Below are positions 5,655 to 59,610 of a stretch of DNA of 64,000 nt, piece by piece (position 1 is the first letter of the stretch; each line of letters starts with the position of its first letter). A program made the position numbers and the translations under genes. The notes under the pieces are model-generated. The model made no database searches. It worked only from the letters and a program-made list of their open reading frames with translations, and was not told where the DNA came from. This stretch comes from an uncultured Gammaproteobacteria bacterium (GTDB taxonomy: Bacteria > Patescibacteriota > Microgenomatia > CAYQLK01). The stretch spans positions 297,322 through 361,321 of the forward strand of contig CAYOLO010000001.1 of NCBI GenBank assembly GCA_964404855.1, written 5' to 3'.

Positions 5655-5813
5655 ATTTCGAGACAAAACCTATGGTTTTTTCTCGACGAGTTTTTGGCAA
5701 AGCCAAATTTTACCTTCGTTAAAACCACTCTACTCTTTTTCCTTATTAGATCGTGTTTGTATTTTGATTCGGGATTACCTGATAGGGTATGATGTGGCTG
5801 GATTTTTAATCTA

Positions 5814-25747: not shown

Positions 25748-26809
25748 CTAAAAAATACCGTAGCTAGTGTAGGTGAGAGTGTTGGTGTAAGTACCAGGCT
25801 CCTGTGTACCAAGGATTTCTAGAGAGTAACCGACATTACTAGCAAAGGCGCTAACAGCAGCTGATTCGTCCTGAATCTTGTAGGCAGTGGTACCAGTGAA
25901 CCCGGCAAAGCTTGTGCCGACGGATGAGAAAGATGACCCACCCCAAGTATCACTGGAAGCAAAGCCGAAATGACCTGGTGAGGTAGGTGTTGACCAAGTT
26001 GTTTCTGAGCCAACTGAAGGTGGTGTACCATCATCAAACGAGTTGATAGTGTCTGAGGTACCGTTGGTTAGGTTAGCAGATTGGGCAACAAAGCTTCTAA
26101 AACCAGCAGTAGCGTTAGTGGAGACTGTTAAAGTATGACAGTGAGTGTATTGGGTTGAAGTCGAAAGATTAACACCGTTGTTGAAGTTAATTGAAGAAGC
26201 AGTCGTTCCACTCGATTCGCAAGTGTCACCACCAGAACCAACAGTACCAGATGTTTTGGCAGTAACAGCAAAGTCAAAAGTAGCACCAATTGAAGCTGAA
26301 ACAGTAACTTGATCCTCAGTTAAGATGTCAACGGCAACATTAGACGAGTCTCCGTCTGTGTAGGTGCCGTCGTTGTTAGGGTCAGTTTCAATAACGAATA
26401 CATAAGTAGCAGCTGCAGGGTTGGAAATAGCTGATGTTGTAAGCGTGACCACATCACCTGAACCACAACCAGAAACAGAAGTAAGGTTGGTAACATTTGA
26501 TGACCAAGCGCCGGTTGTAGCTGAACAGCCACCTGTAGCAGAGAAACCTGGGGTACCGGTGTAGGAGAAGCTTGCTTGGGTGATTCTTATTTTAGATGAG
26601 CTACCAAGAGTAGTGGATAAAGTGAATGTCCAAGTGTGGGTGGCAGAAACACCAGTTTTTTGACGGGAAAGGGCATTGCTAACACTCGTAAGTGAGGCTG
26701 CGGCTGTTTGTTTGGGGGTAAGCGTAATTAAAGTGGTCGAAAGAACAACTGCAATAAGGCAGAGTACCGATAGTTTTTTAACGGTTTTGGTTGTTTGGCG
26801 CAGTCGCAT
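25748..26809 (-). CDS. secreted beta-rich surface protein, paralogue 2 of 3
   Basis: Signal peptide. The C-terminal ~198 aa are identical to paralogue 3. Confidence 0.7.
   Translation of the reverse strand: MRLRQTTKTVKKLSVLCLIAVVLSTTLITLTPKQTAAASLTSVSNALSRQKTGVSATHTWTFTLSTTLGSSSKIRITQASFSYTGTPGFSATGGCSATTGAWSSNVTNLTSVSGCGSGDVVTLTTSAISNPAAATYVFVIETDPNNDGTYTDGDSSNVAVDILTEDQVTVSASIGATFDFAVTAKTSGTVGSGGDTCESSGTTASSINFNNGVNLSTSTQYTHCHTLTVSTNATAGFRSFVAQSANLTNGTSDTINSFDDGTPPSVGSETTWSTPTSPGHFGFASSDTWGGSSFSSVGTSFAGFTGTTAYKIQDESAAVSAFASNVGYSLEILGTQEPGTYTNTLTYTSYGIF
25770..26346. repeat. ~580-bp perfect direct repeat, copy A (3' half of paralogue 2)
   Basis: Identical embedded track ORFs 25819..26037 and 26973..27191, and identical flanking sequence. 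The offset is 1154 bp. Confidence 0.8.
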
Positions 26810-49238: not shown

Positions 49239-49469
49239 AAATTGAGGCTAAAAATCTATTGACCTGTTAATGTTTAAGTGTTAGAATCGCGTACAGCAAA
49301 ATTAAAGATTAAAGCTTATTTAAACGGGACAGACTAATTTTCGGGGGAAATCCCGTTTTTAGTTGGTTTCCCAATATACTTATTAGCTTAATATTTAGCT
49401 GACTCACAAGATTGCAGGTTGTGTGGGTTGAGACTGAAGGACTATCGCTTGTTAGTTGCGATGATTTTT

Positions 49470-49542
49470 GGGCCGGTAGCTCAGTTGGTAGAGCATCGCA
49501 TTTGCAATGCGAGGGTCAGGAGTTCGAGTCTCCTTCGGTCCA
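49470..49542 (+). tRNA. tRNA-Ala (anticodon UGC), leader of the rRNA unit
   Basis: gggccgg...anticodon loop ttTGCaa...T-arm aggag-ttcgagt-ctcct. G3:U70 pair. Confidence 0.8.
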
Positions 49543-49726
49543 CTGTTTAGACTTTTGAACGGGTATTTTAAAATTAAAATTCCCGTATTTGGGTCTAACC
49601 AAAACAAAAAATTAGGCTTGAACTTTAAAAACTGAATAGAAAATATTTGTCCAAAAATATTTTTGACGAGAAAAACTTTTACAGAAAAGAGAAAAAATTA
49701 GTTCTTTATCTGCGAACAAAAAAGAT

Positions 49727-52622
<2,896 letters not shown>

Positions 52623-52836
52623 GAGTTTTCTTGTTTTTTAAAACAAGATATTTCCAGTCTTTTTTATTCGCAAAAAGAATTTTTCGTTCTTAAGTGTTTA
52701 AAAGGCAAATTAAGTTTTGTGATAAATTTCTTATCTTTAACAATTTATTGTTAAAGGCAGAAATGATTTGCGAAGCAAACATTTCTATTCAGTTTTTAGG
52801 TGTTCAAGCTTTTTTTGTGCTTGAAAGATTACTATT

Positions 52837-53217
52837 ATGGCAAAACCAGAGAGTAAAATATTCGATTTTGATTTAGGTGGTTATTTTGATTTTGGTGCGC
52901 CTGAAATTAAGGGAGAGTTTTCTGAAGATGAGGTTGATTTTTTAGGTGCAGTCTTAAGAGATAGAGTAATGGTTAGAATGCTTGCGAAAAGGGGAATTAA
53001 TGTCCGAGCTGTTTTGAGATACATGCTAAGTGAAGAAGAAATCGTTGGGTTTCTGGAGTCATCTGTGTCAGAAGATGTTATGGCTGAAGTGGCAAAACAT
53101 CTTGATTTTAGAGTGAATACAGCACTTTTGAATGAAAAAATTGAACCTGAGAGTGCAGAAAGGATATTAGCTTTTCGAAATAGCCGACTGCCAGCGTTTA
53201 CTTTGGACCAGTCTTGA
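52837..53217 (+). CDS. hypothetical small acidic protein encoded in the 23S-5S spacer
   Basis: A 126-aa ORF with protein-like composition (MAKPESKIFDFDLGG...). No recognisable family. It lies entirely between the rRNA genes. Confidence 0.35.
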   Translation: MAKPESKIFDFDLGGYFDFGAPEIKGEFSEDEVDFLGAVLRDRVMVRMLAKRGINVRAVLRYMLSEEEIVGFLESSVSEDVMAEVAKHLDFRVNTALLNEKIEPESAERILAFRNSRLPAFTLDQS

Positions 53218-53243
53218 CATTAAGAGTAAATGAAGCTAAAATT

Positions 53244-53360
53244 CTCGAACGGTTGTTGAAGCGGTTTGGTCCCACCTGATCCCATCCCGAACTCAGAAGT
53301 GAAACGAGCCAGCGGTGACAATAGTTATTGCGAAAGCGATTATGAAGATAGCTCGCAGCC
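53244..53360 (+). rRNA. rrf: 5S ribosomal RNA
   Basis: Conserved core ggtcccacctgatcccatcccgaactcagaagtgaaacg. The ends are approximate. Confidence 0.6.
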
Positions 53361-54015
53361 GTATTAAGATTTAGCCATCCCTAAAGGATGGCTATTTTTT
53401 TGTTTGCCCTCTAAAGTGCGTATTCAAATGCTTAGAATTACGCCTTGCGCCTTGAGAACACTCAAGGCTAAAAGGAGGGCTTTTTGTTTTTTGTAGCTGC
53501 GTTTTTGCTCAAAAGATAGTTACTCGCTAGAACTCGTCAAAATTCTGGTTCCACCAAATTTTTCCTTGTTCAAGCTACGTCCTGCGAATCAGGATACCTG
53601 ATTCTAATGCTCGCAGCCGTATTAAAATTTGACCATCCCTAAAGGATGGTCATTTTTTTTGTTATATTTTGCCCTCTAAAGTGCGTATTCAAGTGCTTTG
53701 AATTACGCCTTGCGCCTTGAGAACACTCAAGGCTAAAAGGAGAGCTTTTTCTTTATGTACACCATCTAAAATGCTCGCTCAATCGAGCTTGAGCTACGCT
53801 TTGCGCTTCAAGATTAAAAAATATTTTAATCCTCTCGTTGAGAAGGAAACCTAAAGCTAAAAAGATGGTCATTTTTTTGGTTGTTTTCTGATTAAGGATA
53901 GTTACTCGCCAAAATTCCTCCAAAAACTGTCTCCGTCATTTTTGTCATCAGTTTTGGCTACGTCCTGCGTTTTGGGAAACCCAAAACTTAAAAGGAGGGC
54001 TTTTTGTTTGTTTGC
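53336..54015 (+). repeat. degenerate tandem array of ~150-bp modules, each carrying intrinsic-terminator-like hairpins
   Basis: Two near-identical modules at 53336-53490 and 53607-53760 (gctcgcagccgtattaa..ccatccctaaaggatgg+T-run..gccttgagaacactcaaggc..aaaaggagggcttttt), plus two or more partial copies (53795-53880, 53960-54015). The first module includes the 5S 3' end. Confidence 0.75.
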
Positions 54016-54214
54016 GACCTTCGATGAGGTTTTTTTTTATTGTGTGTCGAGTTACTAAGACGAATCTTGAACACTTTATACCACTTCGCGAGTCAATCGA
54101 CAAATACTGGGATAGAAGTAAGTTCAATTACGCCGTTTTTAGCCAGGCAATCCTAGAAACTAACAACCAATTTCAGTATAATGGAATGTACCGATACTAA
54201 GGGAAATATCGAAA

Positions 54215-54469
54215 GTGCGCCACCTGGCGCAAAATAATAAAGATACTATGAACGCAACAAACGACACGCAAAAACCTACACCTGAAAGCACGAACCCTAT
54301 TAAGCAGGTTGTTGATGTGATGAAAAAGGTCGATACCTCTAGCCCAGAGGCAAAGCAGAACGAAGTAAGCATTACCGACAAAAACGGCAAGCGTATAAAA
54401 CTAGACGACGAAGAAGTGAGATTTAATTATTTTAAGGGAACTTTTGAACGAAAAAGCGGCAAAAAATAG
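54215..54469 (+). CDS. hypothetical small protein (element-borne)
   Basis: 84-aa ORF. No recognisable domain. Confidence 0.35.
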   Translation: MRHLAQNNKDTMNATNDTQKPTPESTNPIKQVVDVMKKVDTSSPEAKQNEVSITDKNGKRIKLDDEEVRFNYFKGTFERKSGKK

Positions 54470-54503
54470 TCTATCTTATTAAGCAAGTCCATGTTGAACA
54501 TAT

Positions 54504-55118
54504 ATGTATGCTATTAACGATAACGAATTTATCGAAAAACACGTAACCGATGCACTCTACAAAAAGATAATCGGTGAACTTCGCACGAATCTCGACGGTA
54601 CAAAGAAAAAAGATAAGGGCAGGAAACGAGAACTAACCCGCGAAATACTACGCCAATATCTTTTTAACCTGTCTCTGACTGGCGAGTACGAATTCTCGGC
54701 TGAATCCGCAGGTTTGCCAGAAAAAAGAAGGCAAAAATACATGACTGAATCAGAGTCATTTCGTGGGGTATCTAGCCTGGCGAAGAATAATGTGTCGCTA
54801 CGGTCAAGAATAGCGGTTGCCCAGGCCATAATGGGACGTAGGCCGAGCTACTATAAACTTACTCACCCAATTACGAACCAGCCTACCTACATAGAGTTAA
54901 AAGAAACTCTGCCGAACGTTAATGCGGCTATGTGGTGGCTGGAAAAAGTAGATAAAATTGGCGCAGTGAAAGAAGACGACGACCCATACAAAAATCCCAA
55001 ACTGGGCGCACCACGAAACGAGCATGAAGCTGAATTGTTAGAAGGACTTTTGAAGAGTCACACGGATTACGAGATAGAAAAGTGGCAAAAAGCGCGACAG
55101 GCGCAACAACAAAAATAA
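54504..55118 (+). CDS. hypothetical protein (element-borne)
   Basis: 204-aa ORF of charged composition. No recognisable motif. Confidence 0.45.
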   Translation: MYAINDNEFIEKHVTDALYKKIIGELRTNLDGTKKKDKGRKRELTREILRQYLFNLSLTGEYEFSAESAGLPEKRRQKYMTESESFRGVSSLAKNNVSLRSRIAVAQAIMGRRPSYYKLTHPITNQPTYIELKETLPNVNAAMWWLEKVDKIGAVKEDDDPYKNPKLGAPRNEHEAELLEGLLKSHTDYEIEKWQKARQAQQQK

Positions 55119-55196
55119 AGCAACAATTGGGCCATAGGTCTTGATAATCTTAGATGGGTTTGGTATATTGATTTTGTTAACTCTAGTTAACTTAAT

Positions 55197-56321
55197 ATGA
55201 CCGACAAAGCCACTTTCAATAAAAACATCTACAAAACTACAGGCGACTTGTTAAGTGTAAAAGAAGCCGCTGATTTACTTGGTACTCACCCGAATACAAT
55301 TCGTAGATGGGCAAAGGATGGGAAAATTAAGTCCACCCGTGTGGGTGCGAGAAAAGACAGGAAATTTAATAAAGATGAACTTCTTAAAGAAGCGTTGAAT
55401 GTCAAAGTCGTGGATGGTAAGCAGGAAGCCTACGAAAAATACTACGATTATCTGAAATCTTTATTCAAAAGAACGATTGAAAAGAACCCCGTAGAGTCCT
55501 TGTATAACACCCTTCAAGTTTCTGGTATGCACTATGGACACTGGGACCCGACTTACGAAATTTACGACTTTTTCGATGACTTTAATAAATTACTCGCCGA
55601 GGAAAGCAAAAAAGACCCATCTTCGAAACGTGTCTACCGCATTGGCCTTTTGATGTATGGCCATGCAATAGAGATGGCTCTACCGTGGAACTTACTTGCC
55701 AACGCTCTGAATATATTGAATGGTCGCCCATATAACGTTAGTCCATTCTTAGACCTTATGAGAAGAAAAAAGGGCTCGTTGTACTCGATACCACCATCCA
55801 CAAAACAAAAGATGGTTAGGGTCAAAGAACTCGCTAGAGAAGCTAAAGAAGAAAAGCTAGTAGAGATTATCGACGAATTTTTCAGTGACGCCGTTCGAAA
55901 TAGTTTTTACCATTCCGACTACTGCCTGACCGATACAGAGTTTCGCTTTTCCGATGGCGGAATCGCTTCTTCAAAGCATTTAGAGGAAATTGACCATCTA
56001 ATAAGTCGCTGTTTTGCTTTTTACGAGGCTTTGCTTAACGCTCATTCGTGGACAAGGGCATTTTATAAAGCCGTAAAGCCCTACCACAAATGGCCAAACT
56101 ACGAGGTATTCGAAATACTAAAGAACGATAAAGAAGTTTATGGCTTCAAGGTTCACTTTTCTAATGGCCAGGTAGCAAAGTTCACGCGCGAACCTGAAAA
56201 GGTAGAGGCCATAAATCTACACTTTGACCATGATGGCAGTATCAACTTTTTTGCGGGCAACCTGGACAAACTAACTAAACAGTGGCTTTTAGACGGCAAG
56301 CCGTTTACAGAGAAACAATAA
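55197..56321 (+). CDS. excisionase/MerR-type HTH DNA-binding protein with a large C-terminal domain of unknown function
   Basis: N-terminal LSVKEAADLLGTHPNTIRRWAKDGKIKSTRVG (HTH_17-like). Confidence 0.55.
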   Translation: MTDKATFNKNIYKTTGDLLSVKEAADLLGTHPNTIRRWAKDGKIKSTRVGARKDRKFNKDELLKEALNVKVVDGKQEAYEKYYDYLKSLFKRTIEKNPVESLYNTLQVSGMHYGHWDPTYEIYDFFDDFNKLLAEESKKDPSSKRVYRIGLLMYGHAIEMALPWNLLANALNILNGRPYNVSPFLDLMRRKKGSLYSIPPSTKQKMVRVKELAREAKEEKLVEIIDEFFSDAVRNSFYHSDYCLTDTEFRFSDGGIASSKHLEEIDHLISRCFAFYEALLNAHSWTRAFYKAVKPYHKWPNYEVFEILKNDKEVYGFKVHFSNGQVAKFTREPEKVEAINLHFDHDGSINFFAGNLDKLTKQWLLDGKPFTEKQ

Positions 56322-56326
56322 CATCT

Positions 56327-57214
56327 ATGAGAAACAGAATTAAGTATTCCCAAAATTTCCTTAAAAGCAGTGATTTAATCGAAAGCCTTTTAGAAAAATC
56401 TTCTATTAGCGCGGACGACGTAGTCATAGAAATAGGTGCAGGTGAAGGCATTATTACCCAAGAACTCGCAAAAAAAGCTAAAAAGGTTATCGCTTTTGAA
56501 ATAGATAATAACTTATCCCAAAAACTTAAAGCCAGGTTCCTAGATAAAGGCCTCGTAGAAATTATTAGTCAAGATTTTCTTCAATTTGAACTACCCAAAA
56601 ATGATTACAAAGTGTTTTCAAACATCCCCTTTAATCTTACGGCCAATATAATCAAGAAGCTCGCCTATGCAAACATTCCACCCATAGATAGCTATTTAAT
56701 TATTCAAAAAGAAGCCGCCCAAAAGTTTGCAGGAAAGCCACTTTCGGCCAACAATAGCCTTGTTTCAGTTTTAATTCAGAGTCATTTTGAAGTTTCCATC
56801 TTCCACCAATTTAGAAAAGATGACTTCTTCCCCAGACCAATGGTGGATACTGTAATGATTAGGTTTCAAAAACTGGATGTAGCGAAAATAAAAGCTAATG
56901 AAAAAGATTTATTTTATGACTTTGTTACATTTGGCTTTAACCAGTTCGAGCCAAACATATTTAAGGGCTTATCTAAGGTTATGAACACCAACGCCATAAA
57001 TGAAGTTGCTAACACCAATCGTTTTTCCGTCACAGTTAAACCAAGTCAACTTAATACAAGCGATTGGGTAGCTTTATTTGAAAAGTTCAACTTAGTAGGC
57101 AACAAATCTAAAGTCTTGGGAAATTACAAACGGTTGTTAGGGCAACAAAGTACGTTAGAAAAAGTAAACCGAACCAGGCTAGATAAAAACTGGAAAAATA
57201 GTGCTTCTAACTAG
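56327..57214 (+). CDS. Erm-family 23S rRNA (adenine-N6)-methyltransferase-like protein (KsgA/Erm fold)
   Basis: KYSQNFL, VIEIGAGEGIIT (SAM-binding), FSNIPFNLTANIIKKL, and FFPRPMVDTVMIRF match ErmB/ErmC block for block. The ATG at 56327 sits 5 nt after the upstream stop. Confidence 0.6.
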   Translation: MRNRIKYSQNFLKSSDLIESLLEKSSISADDVVIEIGAGEGIITQELAKKAKKVIAFEIDNNLSQKLKARFLDKGLVEIISQDFLQFELPKNDYKVFSNIPFNLTANIIKKLAYANIPPIDSYLIIQKEAAQKFAGKPLSANNSLVSVLIQSHFEVSIFHQFRKDDFFPRPMVDTVMIRFQKLDVAKIKANEKDLFYDFVTFGFNQFEPNIFKGLSKVMNTNAINEVANTNRFSVTVKPSQLNTSDWVALFEKFNLVGNKSKVLGNYKRLLGQQSTLEKVNRTRLDKNWKNSASN

Positions 57215-57223
57215 AGTAAAACT

Positions 57224-58834
57224 ATGTATGACGAAGAAAACCAAGTCGATATTAAATCGCTAAAATATGTTCTATACGCTCGTAAATCAACCGACGACCC
57301 ACAAAGGCAGTTGCGTTCAATCCCTGACCAAATAGACGAATGTAAAAAGCTAGCCGAACGACTTGAACTAAACGTAGTCGAAGTTTTAGAAGAAAAGAAA
57401 TCAGCAAAAATACCCAGACGAAGACCAGTCTTTGATTCGATGATGGAAGCAATCGGCAAGGGTCAATACGACGCGATACTGGCCTGGCATCCCGACAGAT
57501 TAGCTCGTAACGCCCTTGAAGCTGGCGTCCTAATCGAAATGGTGGACGAAGGAATAATTCAGGACTTAAAATTCGTTACCCACCACTTTAGCCCAGACGC
57601 TAATGGCAAAATGCTTCTGGGAATGGCCTTTGTACTGTCTAAGCAATACAGCGATAAACTTTCCCAGGATGTTACCAGGGGCGTTAGAAGACGCCATAGA
57701 GAAGGTATAACACCTGCCTTTAAGCATGGTTACCTTCGAGACGAAAATGGTATCTATAGACCCGATGGTGAAAAGTTCGACTTAATAAAACAAGGCTGGA
57801 TTATGCGCGCCGATGGAGAATCCTTAGAGGACATCGCGAAATATCTTAATGATAATAATTACTTCCGACTTATTATCGGTGAGAAAAGTAAAAACTATCT
57901 GGGGAAGCAGTACATGACTACCCAGAAGTTAAGTAACATATTCAAAGACCCTTTTTACTTTGGTTTGTTGGTGCAAGTAAAGCAAGAAGTAGATTTATGC
58001 GAAATGCACGAGGATTTCGTGGCAATGGTAAGCCGAGATTTATACGATAAGGTACAAGCGTTGACATTAAATCGGCCAAATCCCTATAAAACCAAGCACC
58101 CAAACTTTTATCCCTTAAAACAAATGATTGATTGCGCCTATTGCGGGGGCAACATGGTCGTAGGCCCGTCTAGTGGTCGTAAAGAAAACTATTTGTATTA
58201 CCGATGCGATACCGCTTCTTGCGCTAGAAATACGCTTGAAAACAAATCTAAACGCCCAAGCGACCCTACAAAAATTAAGGTGTCAATTCGAGCAAAGATA
58301 ATCTTTGACTTTATTTACGACTTCTTGAAGGACGGCCTCGGTTTAACAGAAAAGGAATACAAAGAATACTATCAAGGACTTAAAGCCCTGGGTGATAACG
58401 AGCTTCAAAAGATACGAGCGCAGATAGCAAGCTATCAAGGACAGCGACGCCATTTACAGTCCGAGGTTAGAAGAATTGCCCTTAGCTTGCCAAGAATCAG
58501 AGATGACGAGACGGTTTACCAAATCAATAAAGAAGAACTTGAAAAGGATAAACGCGACCTTAGCCAAGTGGAGACTAATATCGAAAAGTTAAAGGCGAAA
58601 CTTGTTGATAAAGACGATGACGAACTGTCCCTAGAAGAATTCTTGAACATATCAAAAAATGCAGGTAAGAAGGTCAAAGCTGGCGATGCAATCGTAAAAG
58701 ATACAATTTGCCGAATAATCTTCTTGAACATAGCCGTCGACAACGAAAAAGTGACGTCGTATCGGCTAAAAGAACCCTTCGCTACCCTGCTAAAAAGCAG
58801 GTCTTCCCAAAATGGTCGGGGTGGTCGGATTTGA
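57224..58834 (+). CDS. large serine recombinase (resolvase-type catalytic domain + recombinase/zinc-ribbon/coiled-coil C-terminus)
   Basis: YARKSTDDPQRQ...SIPDQ catalytic Ser region, DRLARN, C-terminal CxxC...C cluster (CAYCGG...CDTASC) and coiled-coil. The last 22 nt are tRNA-Pro sequence. Confidence 0.8.
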   Translation: MYDEENQVDIKSLKYVLYARKSTDDPQRQLRSIPDQIDECKKLAERLELNVVEVLEEKKSAKIPRRRPVFDSMMEAIGKGQYDAILAWHPDRLARNALEAGVLIEMVDEGIIQDLKFVTHHFSPDANGKMLLGMAFVLSKQYSDKLSQDVTRGVRRRHREGITPAFKHGYLRDENGIYRPDGEKFDLIKQGWIMRADGESLEDIAKYLNDNNYFRLIIGEKSKNYLGKQYMTTQKLSNIFKDPFYFGLLVQVKQEVDLCEMHEDFVAMVSRDLYDKVQALTLNRPNPYKTKHPNFYPLKQMIDCAYCGGNMVVGPSSGRKENYLYYRCDTASCARNTLENKSKRPSDPTKIKVSIRAKIIFDFIYDFLKDGLGLTEKEYKEYYQGLKALGDNELQKIRAQIASYQGQRRHLQSEVRRIALSLPRIRDDETVYQINKEELEKDKRDLSQVETNIEKLKAKLVDKDDDELSLEEFLNISKNAGKKVKAGDAIVKDTICRIIFLNIAVDNEKVTSYRLKEPFATLLKSRSSQNGRGGRI

Positions 58835-58888
58835 ACCGACGGCCTCGCCGTCCCGAACGACGCGCTCTACCAGCTGAGCTACACCCCG
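58813..58888 (-). tRNA. tRNA-Pro (anticodon CGG), CCA encoded
   Basis: Minus-strand cloverleaf: cggggtg-ta-gctc-agctggta-gagc-g-cgtcg-ttCGGga-cggcg-aggcc-gtcgg-ttcaaat-ccgac-caccccg-a-cca. Confidence 0.8.
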
Positions 58889-59013
58889 TCGTCGAAATGA
58901 GCTACATCGTTGCGAATTGAGACGACATTCAATTATATGTCTCAATTCTTACATTTTTCGCTATTTCTCCTCTCCCCATTTTGTAAACAAAACGGGGGCC
59001 CCGTTTTTTAAGG

Positions 59014-59105
59014 AGACACCAAGGTTTCCCTTCAAAAAACTCTGGGCATAGCCCAGTTTTGTAAACAAAAACGTTTTCTCTTCCTTTCCTGTAAAACAAA
59101 AGCCA
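59014..59105 (+). repeat. ~90-bp repeat element, copy 1 (gacaccaaggtttcccttca...gttttgtaaacaaaaacgttttctcttcctttcct)
   Basis: ~80% identical to copy 2. It begins with the imperfect inverted repeat aaggaga/tcccttc and contains the ctgggcatagcccag hairpin plus a T-run. Confidence 0.7.
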
Positions 59106-59348
59106 AAAGAATAAGAGAGCTTGACCATAATTTTGTTTGAAACAGGAAACAGGGGGTATTGTGACCATTTTGAGGCTAAAAATCAACCGTTTTTATACAC
59201 ATGGCCTGTAATAATTGTGGATTAATCGTATTTTACTATCCCATAGTAAGTTGTTATCGATATAAAGTAAAATTTAAGGTAAAATATTGAGGCTGAAACG
59301 GCATATTTAATCGAAAATCGGCTGTTTGTGATTTTGAGTGGTAGCTTT

Positions 59349-59367
59349 GCCCTTGTAGCTCAGTGGA
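59349..59367 (+). pseudogene. truncated duplicate of the tRNA-Arg 5' end (19 nt: gcccttgtagctcagtgga)
   Basis: Identical to the first 19 nt of the intact tRNA-Arg 83 bp downstream. Confidence 0.6.
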
Positions 59368-59431
59368 GAAGCTTTTAGGAATCTTTTCCACTTCGTACAA
59401 TTTCTTGATTTATTGAGAAATTTTAAATCAA

Positions 59432-59504
59432 GCCCTTGTAGCTCAGTGGATAGAGCGCGCCCGTCCTAAGGGTGGTGTCGGGAGTTCGATTCTCTCCAAG
59501 GGCA
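59432..59504 (+). tRNA. tRNA-Arg (anticodon CCU)
   Basis: gcccttg-ta-gctc-agtggata-gagc-g-cgccc-gtCCTaa-gggtg-gtgtc-gggag-ttcgatt-ctctc-caagggc-a. Confidence 0.75.
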
Positions 59505-59518
59505 CACATAATTATGTG

Positions 59519-59610
59519 AAGGGACACCAAGGTTTCCCTTCAGAAAGCTCTGAACTTTGCTTCGGTTTTGTAAGAAACAAAAACGCTTTCTCTTCCTTTC
59601 CTATTAGAAG
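59519..59610 (+). repeat. ~90-bp repeat element, copy 2
   Basis: gaaggga(caccaaggtt)tcccttc hairpin ...gttttgtaagaaacaaaaacgctttctcttcctttcct. Confidence 0.7.

Follow-up and report, generated by a model that had tools for sequence, protein, structure and literature searches.

A structured intergenic repeat beside tRNA genes of a Patescibacteria genome, with relatives in other bacteria and in archaea

Why do two similar sequences and a fragment of a tRNA gene lie around a tRNA-Pro/tRNA-Arg pair, next to the gene of a large serine recombinase? The question is raised by a 64-kb stretch of DNA from a Patescibacteria lineage (the window; all positions are given on its scale, and tRNA genes were called with ARAGORN and Rfam). 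An earlier note had described two ~90-bp repeats, ~80% identical, one on each side of tRNA-Arg, and had taken them for recombination scars or att (attachment) site remnants or, instead, for a small RNA or tRNA-associated motif. In the reading that we prefer, for and against which the evidence is about evenly balanced, the repeats are "long form" copies of an interspersed structured repeat that punctuates transcription units, similar in kind to repetitive extragenic palindromes (REPs) and miniature inverted-repeat transposable elements (MITEs). The element matches no catalogued RNA family and has relatives in many other bacteria and in archaea. The features on which the argument turns are the following.

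59008-59090, plus strand: copy 1, long form (model R1, 37.9 bits)
59517-59602, plus strand: copy 2, long form (model R1, 46.3 bits), starting 12 nt past tRNA-Arg
5656-5745, plus strand: third, more divergent member (generalised hairpin scan), 2 nt past the stop codon of an open reading frame (ORF) with an S1 domain
58813-58888, minus strand: tRNA-Pro(cgg), called by ARAGORN and Rfam
59432-59505, plus strand: tRNA-Arg(cct), CCA not encoded, called by ARAGORN and Rfam
59349-59431, plus strand: type A leader cassette, 83 bp, made of a 19-nt tRNA-Arg fragment (59349-59367) and 64 nt with two hairpins

The repeats are real. Copies 1 and 2 are direct repeats of ~85 nt, 508 nt apart, with 81% column identity in a MAFFT alignment, and the boundaries given earlier (59014-59105 and 59519-59610) were correct to ~10 nt. 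Two conserved blocks, GACACCAAGGTTTCCCTTCA at 59015 and 59523 and AACAAAAACGYTTTCTCTTCCTTTCCT at 59064 and 59576, occur at no other site in the 64 kb, and shuffled sequences give an expectation of 0 matches for both. The hairpin previously written as gaaggga...tcccttc is intact in copy 2 (hairpin 1, 59517-59542, TGAAGG-GACACCAAGGTTTC-CCTTCA) and imperfect in copy 1 (59008-59036), where AAGGAGA faces TCCCTTC. In copy 2, a helix P2 pairs GAAAGC (59543-59548) with GCTTTC (59585-59590) and hairpin 2 (59550-59565, a 5-bp stem with one G·U pair) is followed by TTTTG; a pyrimidine tail (59591-59602) closes the copy. In copy 1, hairpin 2 (59042-59056, CTGGGCATAGCCCAG) is accompanied by a T-run on each strand and was scored as a terminator on both; judged as a G+C-rich hairpin followed by a T-run, it is a predicted intrinsic terminator, and its counterpart in copy 2 is a weaker one. 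The AACAAAAACG block and the pyrimidine box of copy 1 lie at 59064-59090. The third member reads TCGAGACAAAACC-TAT-GGTTTTTTCTCGA, then TTTTTGGCAAAGCCAAATTTT, then CTCTACTCTTTTTCCTT; the scan that found it returned three loci in the window, compared to 0.38 expected per shuffle.

The anatomy of the family is common to these copies and to the relatives described below. A member consists of a basal stem that is free in sequence but complementary, a conserved box helix, a variable apical loop, a pyrimidine box and usually a second hairpin. The box helix is 5'-GACA(CC)...(GG)TTTC-3' (GACACC/GGTTTC), with a C·T mismatch always at its third position (A·G on the other strand). The pyrimidine box is CYCTTCCTTT (CTCTTCCTTT), and the second hairpin, present in most members, is terminator-like, with a GCAAAGC-type loop and a T-run. 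Comparison of covariance-model variants and relatives revealed that the invariant part is the short mismatch-bearing helix and not a loop: the apical loop may be AA, AAT, AAGTAT, AAACAT, TGC or TAC with the box retained, and the inner C-G pair of the box can switch to A-T.

Covariation in the stem of hairpin 1 is strong. In 34 distinct members, 85% of cells are paired, compared to 65% in shuffles, both sides have changed in 89 cells where 35 are expected, and the covariation score of 0.55 (vs 0.18) was reached by none of 500 shuffles. Seven long-form copies, from several species and three kinds of site, are 80% identical, and their unpaired segments are conserved to ~80% as well. They fold into hairpin 1 plus a GAAAGC/GCUUUC helix that encloses hairpin 2 and a UUUUG/CAAAA stem, with the pyrimidine tail remaining single-stranded; compensatory changes occur at several pairs, including hairpin 2 and the GAAAGC/GCUUUC closing helix.

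How widely is the element distributed? Species-representative genomes were scanned with a 20-mer and metagenomes with GRGACACCAAGGTTTCYC (loci are cited by number, L001 and upward). The first scan found full copies in one metagenome-assembled genome (MAG), unrelated to the window organism; there, an rpoD-like gene is directly followed by one copy, another stands 7 nt ahead of tRNA-Pro(tgg) and a shorter form 5 nt ahead of tRNA-Leu. The second scan found at least 120 loci. Among the matches listed, about three quarters share one architecture, in which the core is enclosed by a stem and followed after 2-45 nt by a pyrimidine box (CTCTTCCTTT, CCTTTCCTT or ACCTCCTTTCC), and the loci range from AT-rich to very GC-rich. 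The 14-nt core is common to Patescibacteria, gut Clostridia-like bacteria, high-G+C soil bacteria and archaea; indeed, L034 carries archaeal uS13 and uS4 and L019 bacterial uS7. The element is thus neither confined to this locus nor devoid of compensatory changes, and the earlier description as a tRNA-associated structured motif is supported.

Members occupy tandem, convergent and divergent spacers in both orientations. They begin 3-75 nt past stop codons or end 12-37 nt ahead of start codons, as between rpsL and rpsG in L019, and often lie 2-13 nt from the ends of tRNA or tmRNA genes. The 3' end of tRNA-Arg is flanked by a member in the window, L134 and L136, and the 5' end of tRNA-Pro in L133, L134, L136 and L138-140, with a decayed copy in L141; in L143 and the window, ~100 nt separate the tRNA-Pro 5' end from the member. 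tRNA-Leu is flanked in L007 and L055 and tmRNA in L010. In the archaeal locus L079, tRNA-Ser(cga) has a 55-nt intron at position 37/38 (position 38 according to ARAGORN with introns allowed) that consists entirely of the element. This is the only locus at which the element shows the hallmark of archaeal tRNA introns, namely that a tRNA intact in other respects is interrupted at 37/38, and the window copies do not have it; the minimum-energy fold of the L079 pre-tRNA is neither a cloverleaf nor a bulge-helix-bulge. A copy nearly identical to this intron lies 3 nt ahead of another tRNA in L055. As a separate observation, L116 (270-500) holds an apparent archaeal tRNA-Cys(GCA), seen by eye and not called by ARAGORN, whose T-loop is split by ~133 nt containing the element and whose D-arm is possibly interrupted too.

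In human-gut loci, two inverted copies of the element enclose a conserved core of ~200-290 nt; this arrangement, found in at least 10 different gene contexts, looks like a larger composite repeat. On two high-G+C gut contigs (L028, 8470-9090; L022, 7093-7410), the core is noncoding and further hairpins lie outside the inverted pairs. Tandem arrays with a 60-nt period are present in L038 (1215-1368) and L100 (2494-2585); there, the whole unit is repeated and no unique spacers occur.

Strain polymorphism at the locus itself is extensive. Four short contigs (L001-L004) encode an identical sortase protein and are 99.7% identical to the window from 59334 rightwards; left of 59334, identity drops to ~87% or the sequences are unalignable. 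This drop is sharp, and therefore we place a recombination breakpoint beside the 5' end of tRNA-Arg. More distant relatives were collected as contigs with a sortase 79-91% identical to that of the window, and ten of them keep the order tRNA-Pro (minus strand), tRNA-Arg (plus strand), sortase. Orthologues of copy 2 follow tRNA-Arg in L001-L004, L134/135 and L136; in L133, all that is found there is a miniature hairpin and a pyrimidine box, and in L138-140 the element is missing from this site. Beside tRNA-Pro, a near-identical long form stands 2 nt from the 5' end in L139 and a GAGAACACC...GGTTTTCTC subtype in L138 and L140, although the sortase protein is identical in all three; L001 and L002 have yet another variant at the copy 1 site, and in L141 the element is decayed. 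L133 and L136 have identical flanks with the box inverted in L133, and the same flip was seen among the gut copies in L018. It should be mentioned that L003 and L004 end inside the element or the adjacent tRNA; the element breaks metagenome assemblies at this locus. In the closest sortase relatives (L129-L132, 88-91% identity), the tRNA-Pro/tRNA-Arg pair has been lost upstream of the sortase gene and a gene with a beta-lactamase fold is found instead.

These data point toward an interspersed repeat and not a single strand-specific RNA, because the element is free in orientation, its box flips and it is rapidly replaced between close strains. The REP/MITE kind fits because the element is also multi-copy, modular and found in paired arrangements. 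In our model, members occupy the spacers beside tRNA and other highly expressed genes of this Patescibacteria lineage, and copies would spread or be exchanged between sites, possibly by transposition in trans or by gene conversion between copies; since copies would move or exchange, a single site may hold different subtypes, flipped boxes, decayed copies or none. Hairpin 2 of copy 2 with its T-run would terminate the tRNA-Arg unit or insulate it ahead of the sortase gene, copy 1 would likewise act as terminator or insulator between the recombinase/tRNA-Pro side and the tRNA-Arg promoter, and the stable hairpins would also shield processed RNA ends. Anatomy, covariation, distribution and strain polymorphism are established by the data above; the mode of mobility and the role as terminator or stabiliser are what we infer.

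Several observations weigh against this model. An all-against-all BLAST of the ORFs in 120 loci among the matches listed revealed no shared transposase, and a phmmer search turned up a single Y1 transposase (Pfam Y1_Tnp, E = 1.3e-26), in L122, with none in the other 119 loci or in the window; the repeats on its two sides are different ones. Classical REPs have a GTAG/CGTC tag, which is missing here (flanks are TG|TGAAGG, ACT|CTAAGG, AAAT|GAGA and GGCA|GGGA), and no terminal inverted repeats or target-site duplications were found around the window copies, which are direct repeats. The T-runs behind hairpin 2 are short (TTTTG), just three members are present in 64 kb, and across the relatives the tRNA-Pro flank almost always holds some member of the family, which may be needed there. 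Moreover, a motif so conserved in Bacteria and Archaea, unpaired segments included, is unusual for selfish repeats; a functional RNA, or a ligand that some universal factor binds, would suit it no less well.

The locus with the Y1 transposase deserves a description of its own. In L122, an IS200-like Y1 transposase gene (275-727, motif YIKNQKEHH) lies between direct repeats (125-205 and 797-880) with hairpins AAACACCGATGGTGTTT and GTTCCGTTAGGAAC, and the whole unit sits as an insertion exactly where a family member ends. The transposase falls in a subclass reported to occur without REPs (PMC6006769).

A second explanation, which we regard as possible rather than probable, is that the family works in cis, in the leaders and trailers of tRNAs and at the ends of mRNAs, either as a functional RNA with a defined structure or as a hairpin to which a conserved factor binds. 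It could signal processing or confer stability, or it could be a 3' external spacer linked to a tRNA, with a single-stranded tail, UCUUCCUUUCCU, that resembles an anti-Shine-Dalgarno sequence and pairs with ribosome-binding sites; the box helix with its mismatch would be recognised by a protein common to Bacteria and Archaea. Consistent with such a role, the box is invariant in L034 and L019 (archaeal and bacterial, respectively), the stem covaries, the unpaired segments of the long forms are conserved, and all ten relatives that keep the locus order have some member beside tRNA-Pro. Furthermore, the element is transcribed as the tRNA-Ser intron of L079, and the tail of copy 2 is able to pair with the purine-rich stretch before the sortase start. 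However, members stand in both orientations relative to their neighbours, in divergent and convergent spacers as well, the box is flipped in L133 and L018 with the element retained, and close strains lack the element or have another subtype. Wobble counts give no consistent strand either (45 A·C vs 22 G·U overall, and mixed within the long forms).

A further idea is that box helix and pyrimidine box together are an undescribed functional nucleic-acid module of Bacteria and Archaea that homes to tRNA genes. We put it forward tentatively and with rather little confidence. The module could be a structured RNA, a single-stranded DNA hairpin for a universally conserved factor, a new small ribozyme or a mobile mini-intron, and it would be an intron where the splicing endonuclease exists and a leader or trailer element where it does not.

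Unlikely, in our opinion, is the more specific proposal of a small self-cleaving ribozyme or mobile mini-intron that would enter tRNA transcripts and adjacent sequences as RNA, and in which the loop AAGG and CCUU of the pyrimidine box would form a pseudoknot as in pistol-type ribozymes. The multi-copy, cross-domain and orientation-free spread with short conserved blocks does resemble that of small ribozymes, and every one of the matches listed has AAGG(UU) in its loop and (AA)CCUU further downstream; the element that makes up an entire 55-nt archaeal tRNA intron and its near-identical copy before another tRNA in L055 would suit a mini-intron. On the other hand, many members have varied or inserted loop nucleotides that break the proposed pseudoknot, the pseudoknot pairing does not covary, basal stems of 15 bp leave the linker too short, and no likeness to any Rfam ribozyme was found.

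Searches against catalogues are in line with an element outside the named families. Rfam 15 placed no family on it, at the gathering threshold or at a permissive E-value, in the window, 32 loci and the gut element, and its matches elsewhere were to rRNA, tRNA, tmRNA, RNase P, 6S and ZTP only. Viral contigs gave 0 matches, BLAST of the window element, the short form and the gut element against plasmids and phages gave short matches at chance level only (E ≥ 0.08), and the literature, searched by core sequence and by concept, yielded nothing relevant. Three other readings were considered. A coding reading (ETPRF.../GNLGVP) is rejected since the translation recurs only because the DNA recurs, and stops and frames are not conserved. 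A promoter on the reverse strand is not supported, as there are no consistent -35/-10 boxes at a workable distance from tRNA 5' ends. Resemblances to the 16S rRNA 3' end, the tRNA D-arm/anticodon arm, the tRNA 3' end and tmRNA are short, partial matches seen by eye that we judge to be coincidental.

A simple local segmental duplication without wider meaning is very improbable: copies 1 and 2 are direct repeats 508 nt apart and 81% identical, as a duplication would leave them, but in other species the long form stands at the one site or the other (beside tRNA-Pro in L139, after tRNA-Arg in L134 and L136) and, in the unrelated MAG, after rpoD and before another tRNA-Pro.

What, then, of the tRNA-Arg fragment? 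As noted earlier, the first 19 nt of tRNA-Arg, GCCCTTGTAGCTCAGTGGA, occur as exact copies at 59349-59367 and 59432-59450, 83 nt apart, a match seen in 0 of 100 shuffles. The fragment and the 64 nt that follow it make up the type A cassette, which is also present in L001 and in L136, a different species, and absent in L002, L133, L134 and L138-143. Because it is present in the other species with its last 35 nt identical in the window, L001 and L136, we consider type A an old, conserved leader cassette; most simply, it was lost in some lineages by recombination between the two 19-mers, and it would be gained or lost across the repeated 19-mer in general. A type B cassette, with an inverted copy of the tRNA-Arg 5' end, is found in L001, L002, L134 and L141 and, decayed, in L143. 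In L001 (553-626), type B and the direct fragment of cassette A form a 16-bp inverted repeat around a TATATAAT box; type B leader RNA could pair with the tRNA 5' end, and in L002, L134 and L141 the tRNA itself is the sole partner. A tRNA pseudogene was tried as a reading of the 83-nt unit and rejected: it matches no Rfam tRNA model at E ≤ 10 in the window or L001, and ARAGORN calls the intact gene only, with no cloverleaf remnant upstream of tRNA-Arg. Cassettes with tRNA-Arg 5' sequence at their borders make the locus a mosaic, and the recombinase island did not produce it. In this looser sense, with the breakpoint between ~87% and 99.7% identity close to the tRNA-Arg 5' end, the term recombination scar still holds.

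There is next to nothing left to recommend the reading in which the adjacent serine recombinase island left the repeats and the tRNA fragment behind as attL/attR remnants or scars: the recombinase gene does end in the 3' end of tRNA-Pro, 180 nt from copy 1, and both sides of tRNA-Pro differ from strains L001 and L002, but the ten relatives that keep the locus order, with no recombinase gene called in their fetched flanks, carry members at both flanks and, in L136, the type A cassette (neither is thus restricted to the boundaries of the island), there are members remote from any recombinase, no further 19-mer copy marks an island boundary anywhere in the window, even with three mismatches allowed, and serine integrases are not known to make long direct repeats.

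The surroundings of the locus contain the following further features.

57224-58834, plus strand: large serine recombinase gene (Resolvase, Recombinase and Zn_ribbon_recom domains), outside the repeat family
55197: HTH_17 (excisionase-like) protein
56282: rRNA adenine dimethylase-family gene (Erm/KsgA-like)
59630: sortase gene
59167-59205, plus strand: promoter-like word ATTTTGAGGCTAAAAATC followed by TTATAC; the word is also found ahead of the tRNA-Ala/23S operon at 49242
58989-59008, no strand assigned: near-perfect palindrome AAAACGGGGGCCCCGTTTTT, 9-nt arms

The stretch 53400-58834, beside the 23S/5S operon, contains small ORFs, the HTH_17 gene, the rRNA adenine dimethylase-family gene and the serine recombinase gene and is a probable integrated island. 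The stop codon of the recombinase gene falls within the 3' end of tRNA-Pro, and we place the island junction there because, among the loci compared, only the tRNA-Pro of this window has an encoded CCA. The homologues of the sortase are from named Patescibacteria (Curtissbacteria, Daviesbacteria and Levybacteria), which makes the source of the window a bacterium of the candidate phyla radiation. Upstream of tRNA-Arg there is also a strong promoter-like word, TTGAGGCTAAAAAT, common to the rRNA operon. The word at 59167 is kept in all relatives compared, and 59167-59205 is probably the promoter of the tRNA-Arg unit. ATTTTGAGGCTAAAAAT(C) occurs four times (134-150, 49242-49256, 59167-59184 and 59284-59298), one occurrence lying upstream of the tRNA-Ala/23S/5S operon, and is likely the -35 region of a strong promoter for stable-RNA genes. 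The palindrome near 58990, which had been called perfect, is real, but its arms enclose one central base across 58989-59007, and thus it is nearly perfect only; preceded by an A-run and followed by a T-run, the hairpin resembles a terminator, and L143 has another hairpin, AAAAAGCTGGTGGCTTTTT, at the equivalent position. Elsewhere in the window, the tRNA-Ala/23S/5S operon lies at 49470-53364, and the rRNA genes are unlinked, since the 16S rRNA gene is missing from the 64 kb. An identical stretch of at least ~115 nt is repeated at 25904 and 27058, 1154 nt apart.

If nothing more than selfish DNA, the element nonetheless stands out among repeats for its wide distribution and would serve well as a marker of how intergenic regions turn over in reduced genomes. 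Should the mismatch helix instead act as a binding site or catalytic core, it would represent a new RNA or DNA motif, shared across domains and linked to the boundaries of tRNA genes, bearing on how organisms with tiny genomes delimit and process their tRNA transcription units and also on the origin and mobility of archaeal tRNA introns.

Several known systems resemble the element in part. Archaeal bulge-helix-bulge tRNA introns, which have been proposed to transpose, share with it the complete 55-nt intron of L079 at 37/38, but most members, and all those of the window, lie outside tRNA genes and in Bacteria, which are not known to have the splicing endonuclease. Small RNAs from 3' external transcribed spacers of tRNAs, such as 3'ETS-leuZ of E. 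coli, resemble copy 2 in that it is conserved, structured, directly after a tRNA and equipped with a single-stranded tail capable of pairing; however, our element also stands antisense before tRNAs and beside protein-coding genes. The BOX elements of pneumococci, the Correia elements of Neisseria and the ERIC elements of enterobacteria are likewise modular, as are our members, in which hairpin 1, pyrimidine box and hairpin 2 vary in order and number, and they are co-transcribed with their neighbours, with effects on termination and RNA stability; yet they are confined to one genus or family each and share no sequence similarity with the element.

MITEs and palindrome-associated transposable elements (PATEs) derived from insertion sequences of the IS200/IS605 type are also short, non-autonomous repeats with structured ends, and the gut members, paired inversely around their core of ~200-290 nt, come close to them; such inverted pairs occur in gut-type loci only. 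IS200/IS605 elements are found in both Bacteria and Archaea, and their transposase recognises subterminal hairpins with mispaired bases. The window copies differ in having no terminal inverted repeats, no target-site duplication, no conserved target tetranucleotide and no partner transposase that we could find. REPs and their doublets (REPINs), mobilised by the Y1 transposase RAYT, differ in the GTAG/CGTC tag, absent here along with any RAYT in the window, and are normally specific to a species or genus, whereas the family described here spans many phyla and Archaea and adds a conserved pyrimidine box, a second hairpin and an association with tRNA genes. REPs, too, are short imperfect palindromes with a conserved mismatch, extragenic (as are the three palindromic members in our 64-kb window), multi-copy, in either orientation and at times in clusters or as inverted doublets; many of them resemble terminators or stabilise RNA, and they differ from strain to strain. 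We file the element with the interspersed palindromic repeats, as a member of no named family.

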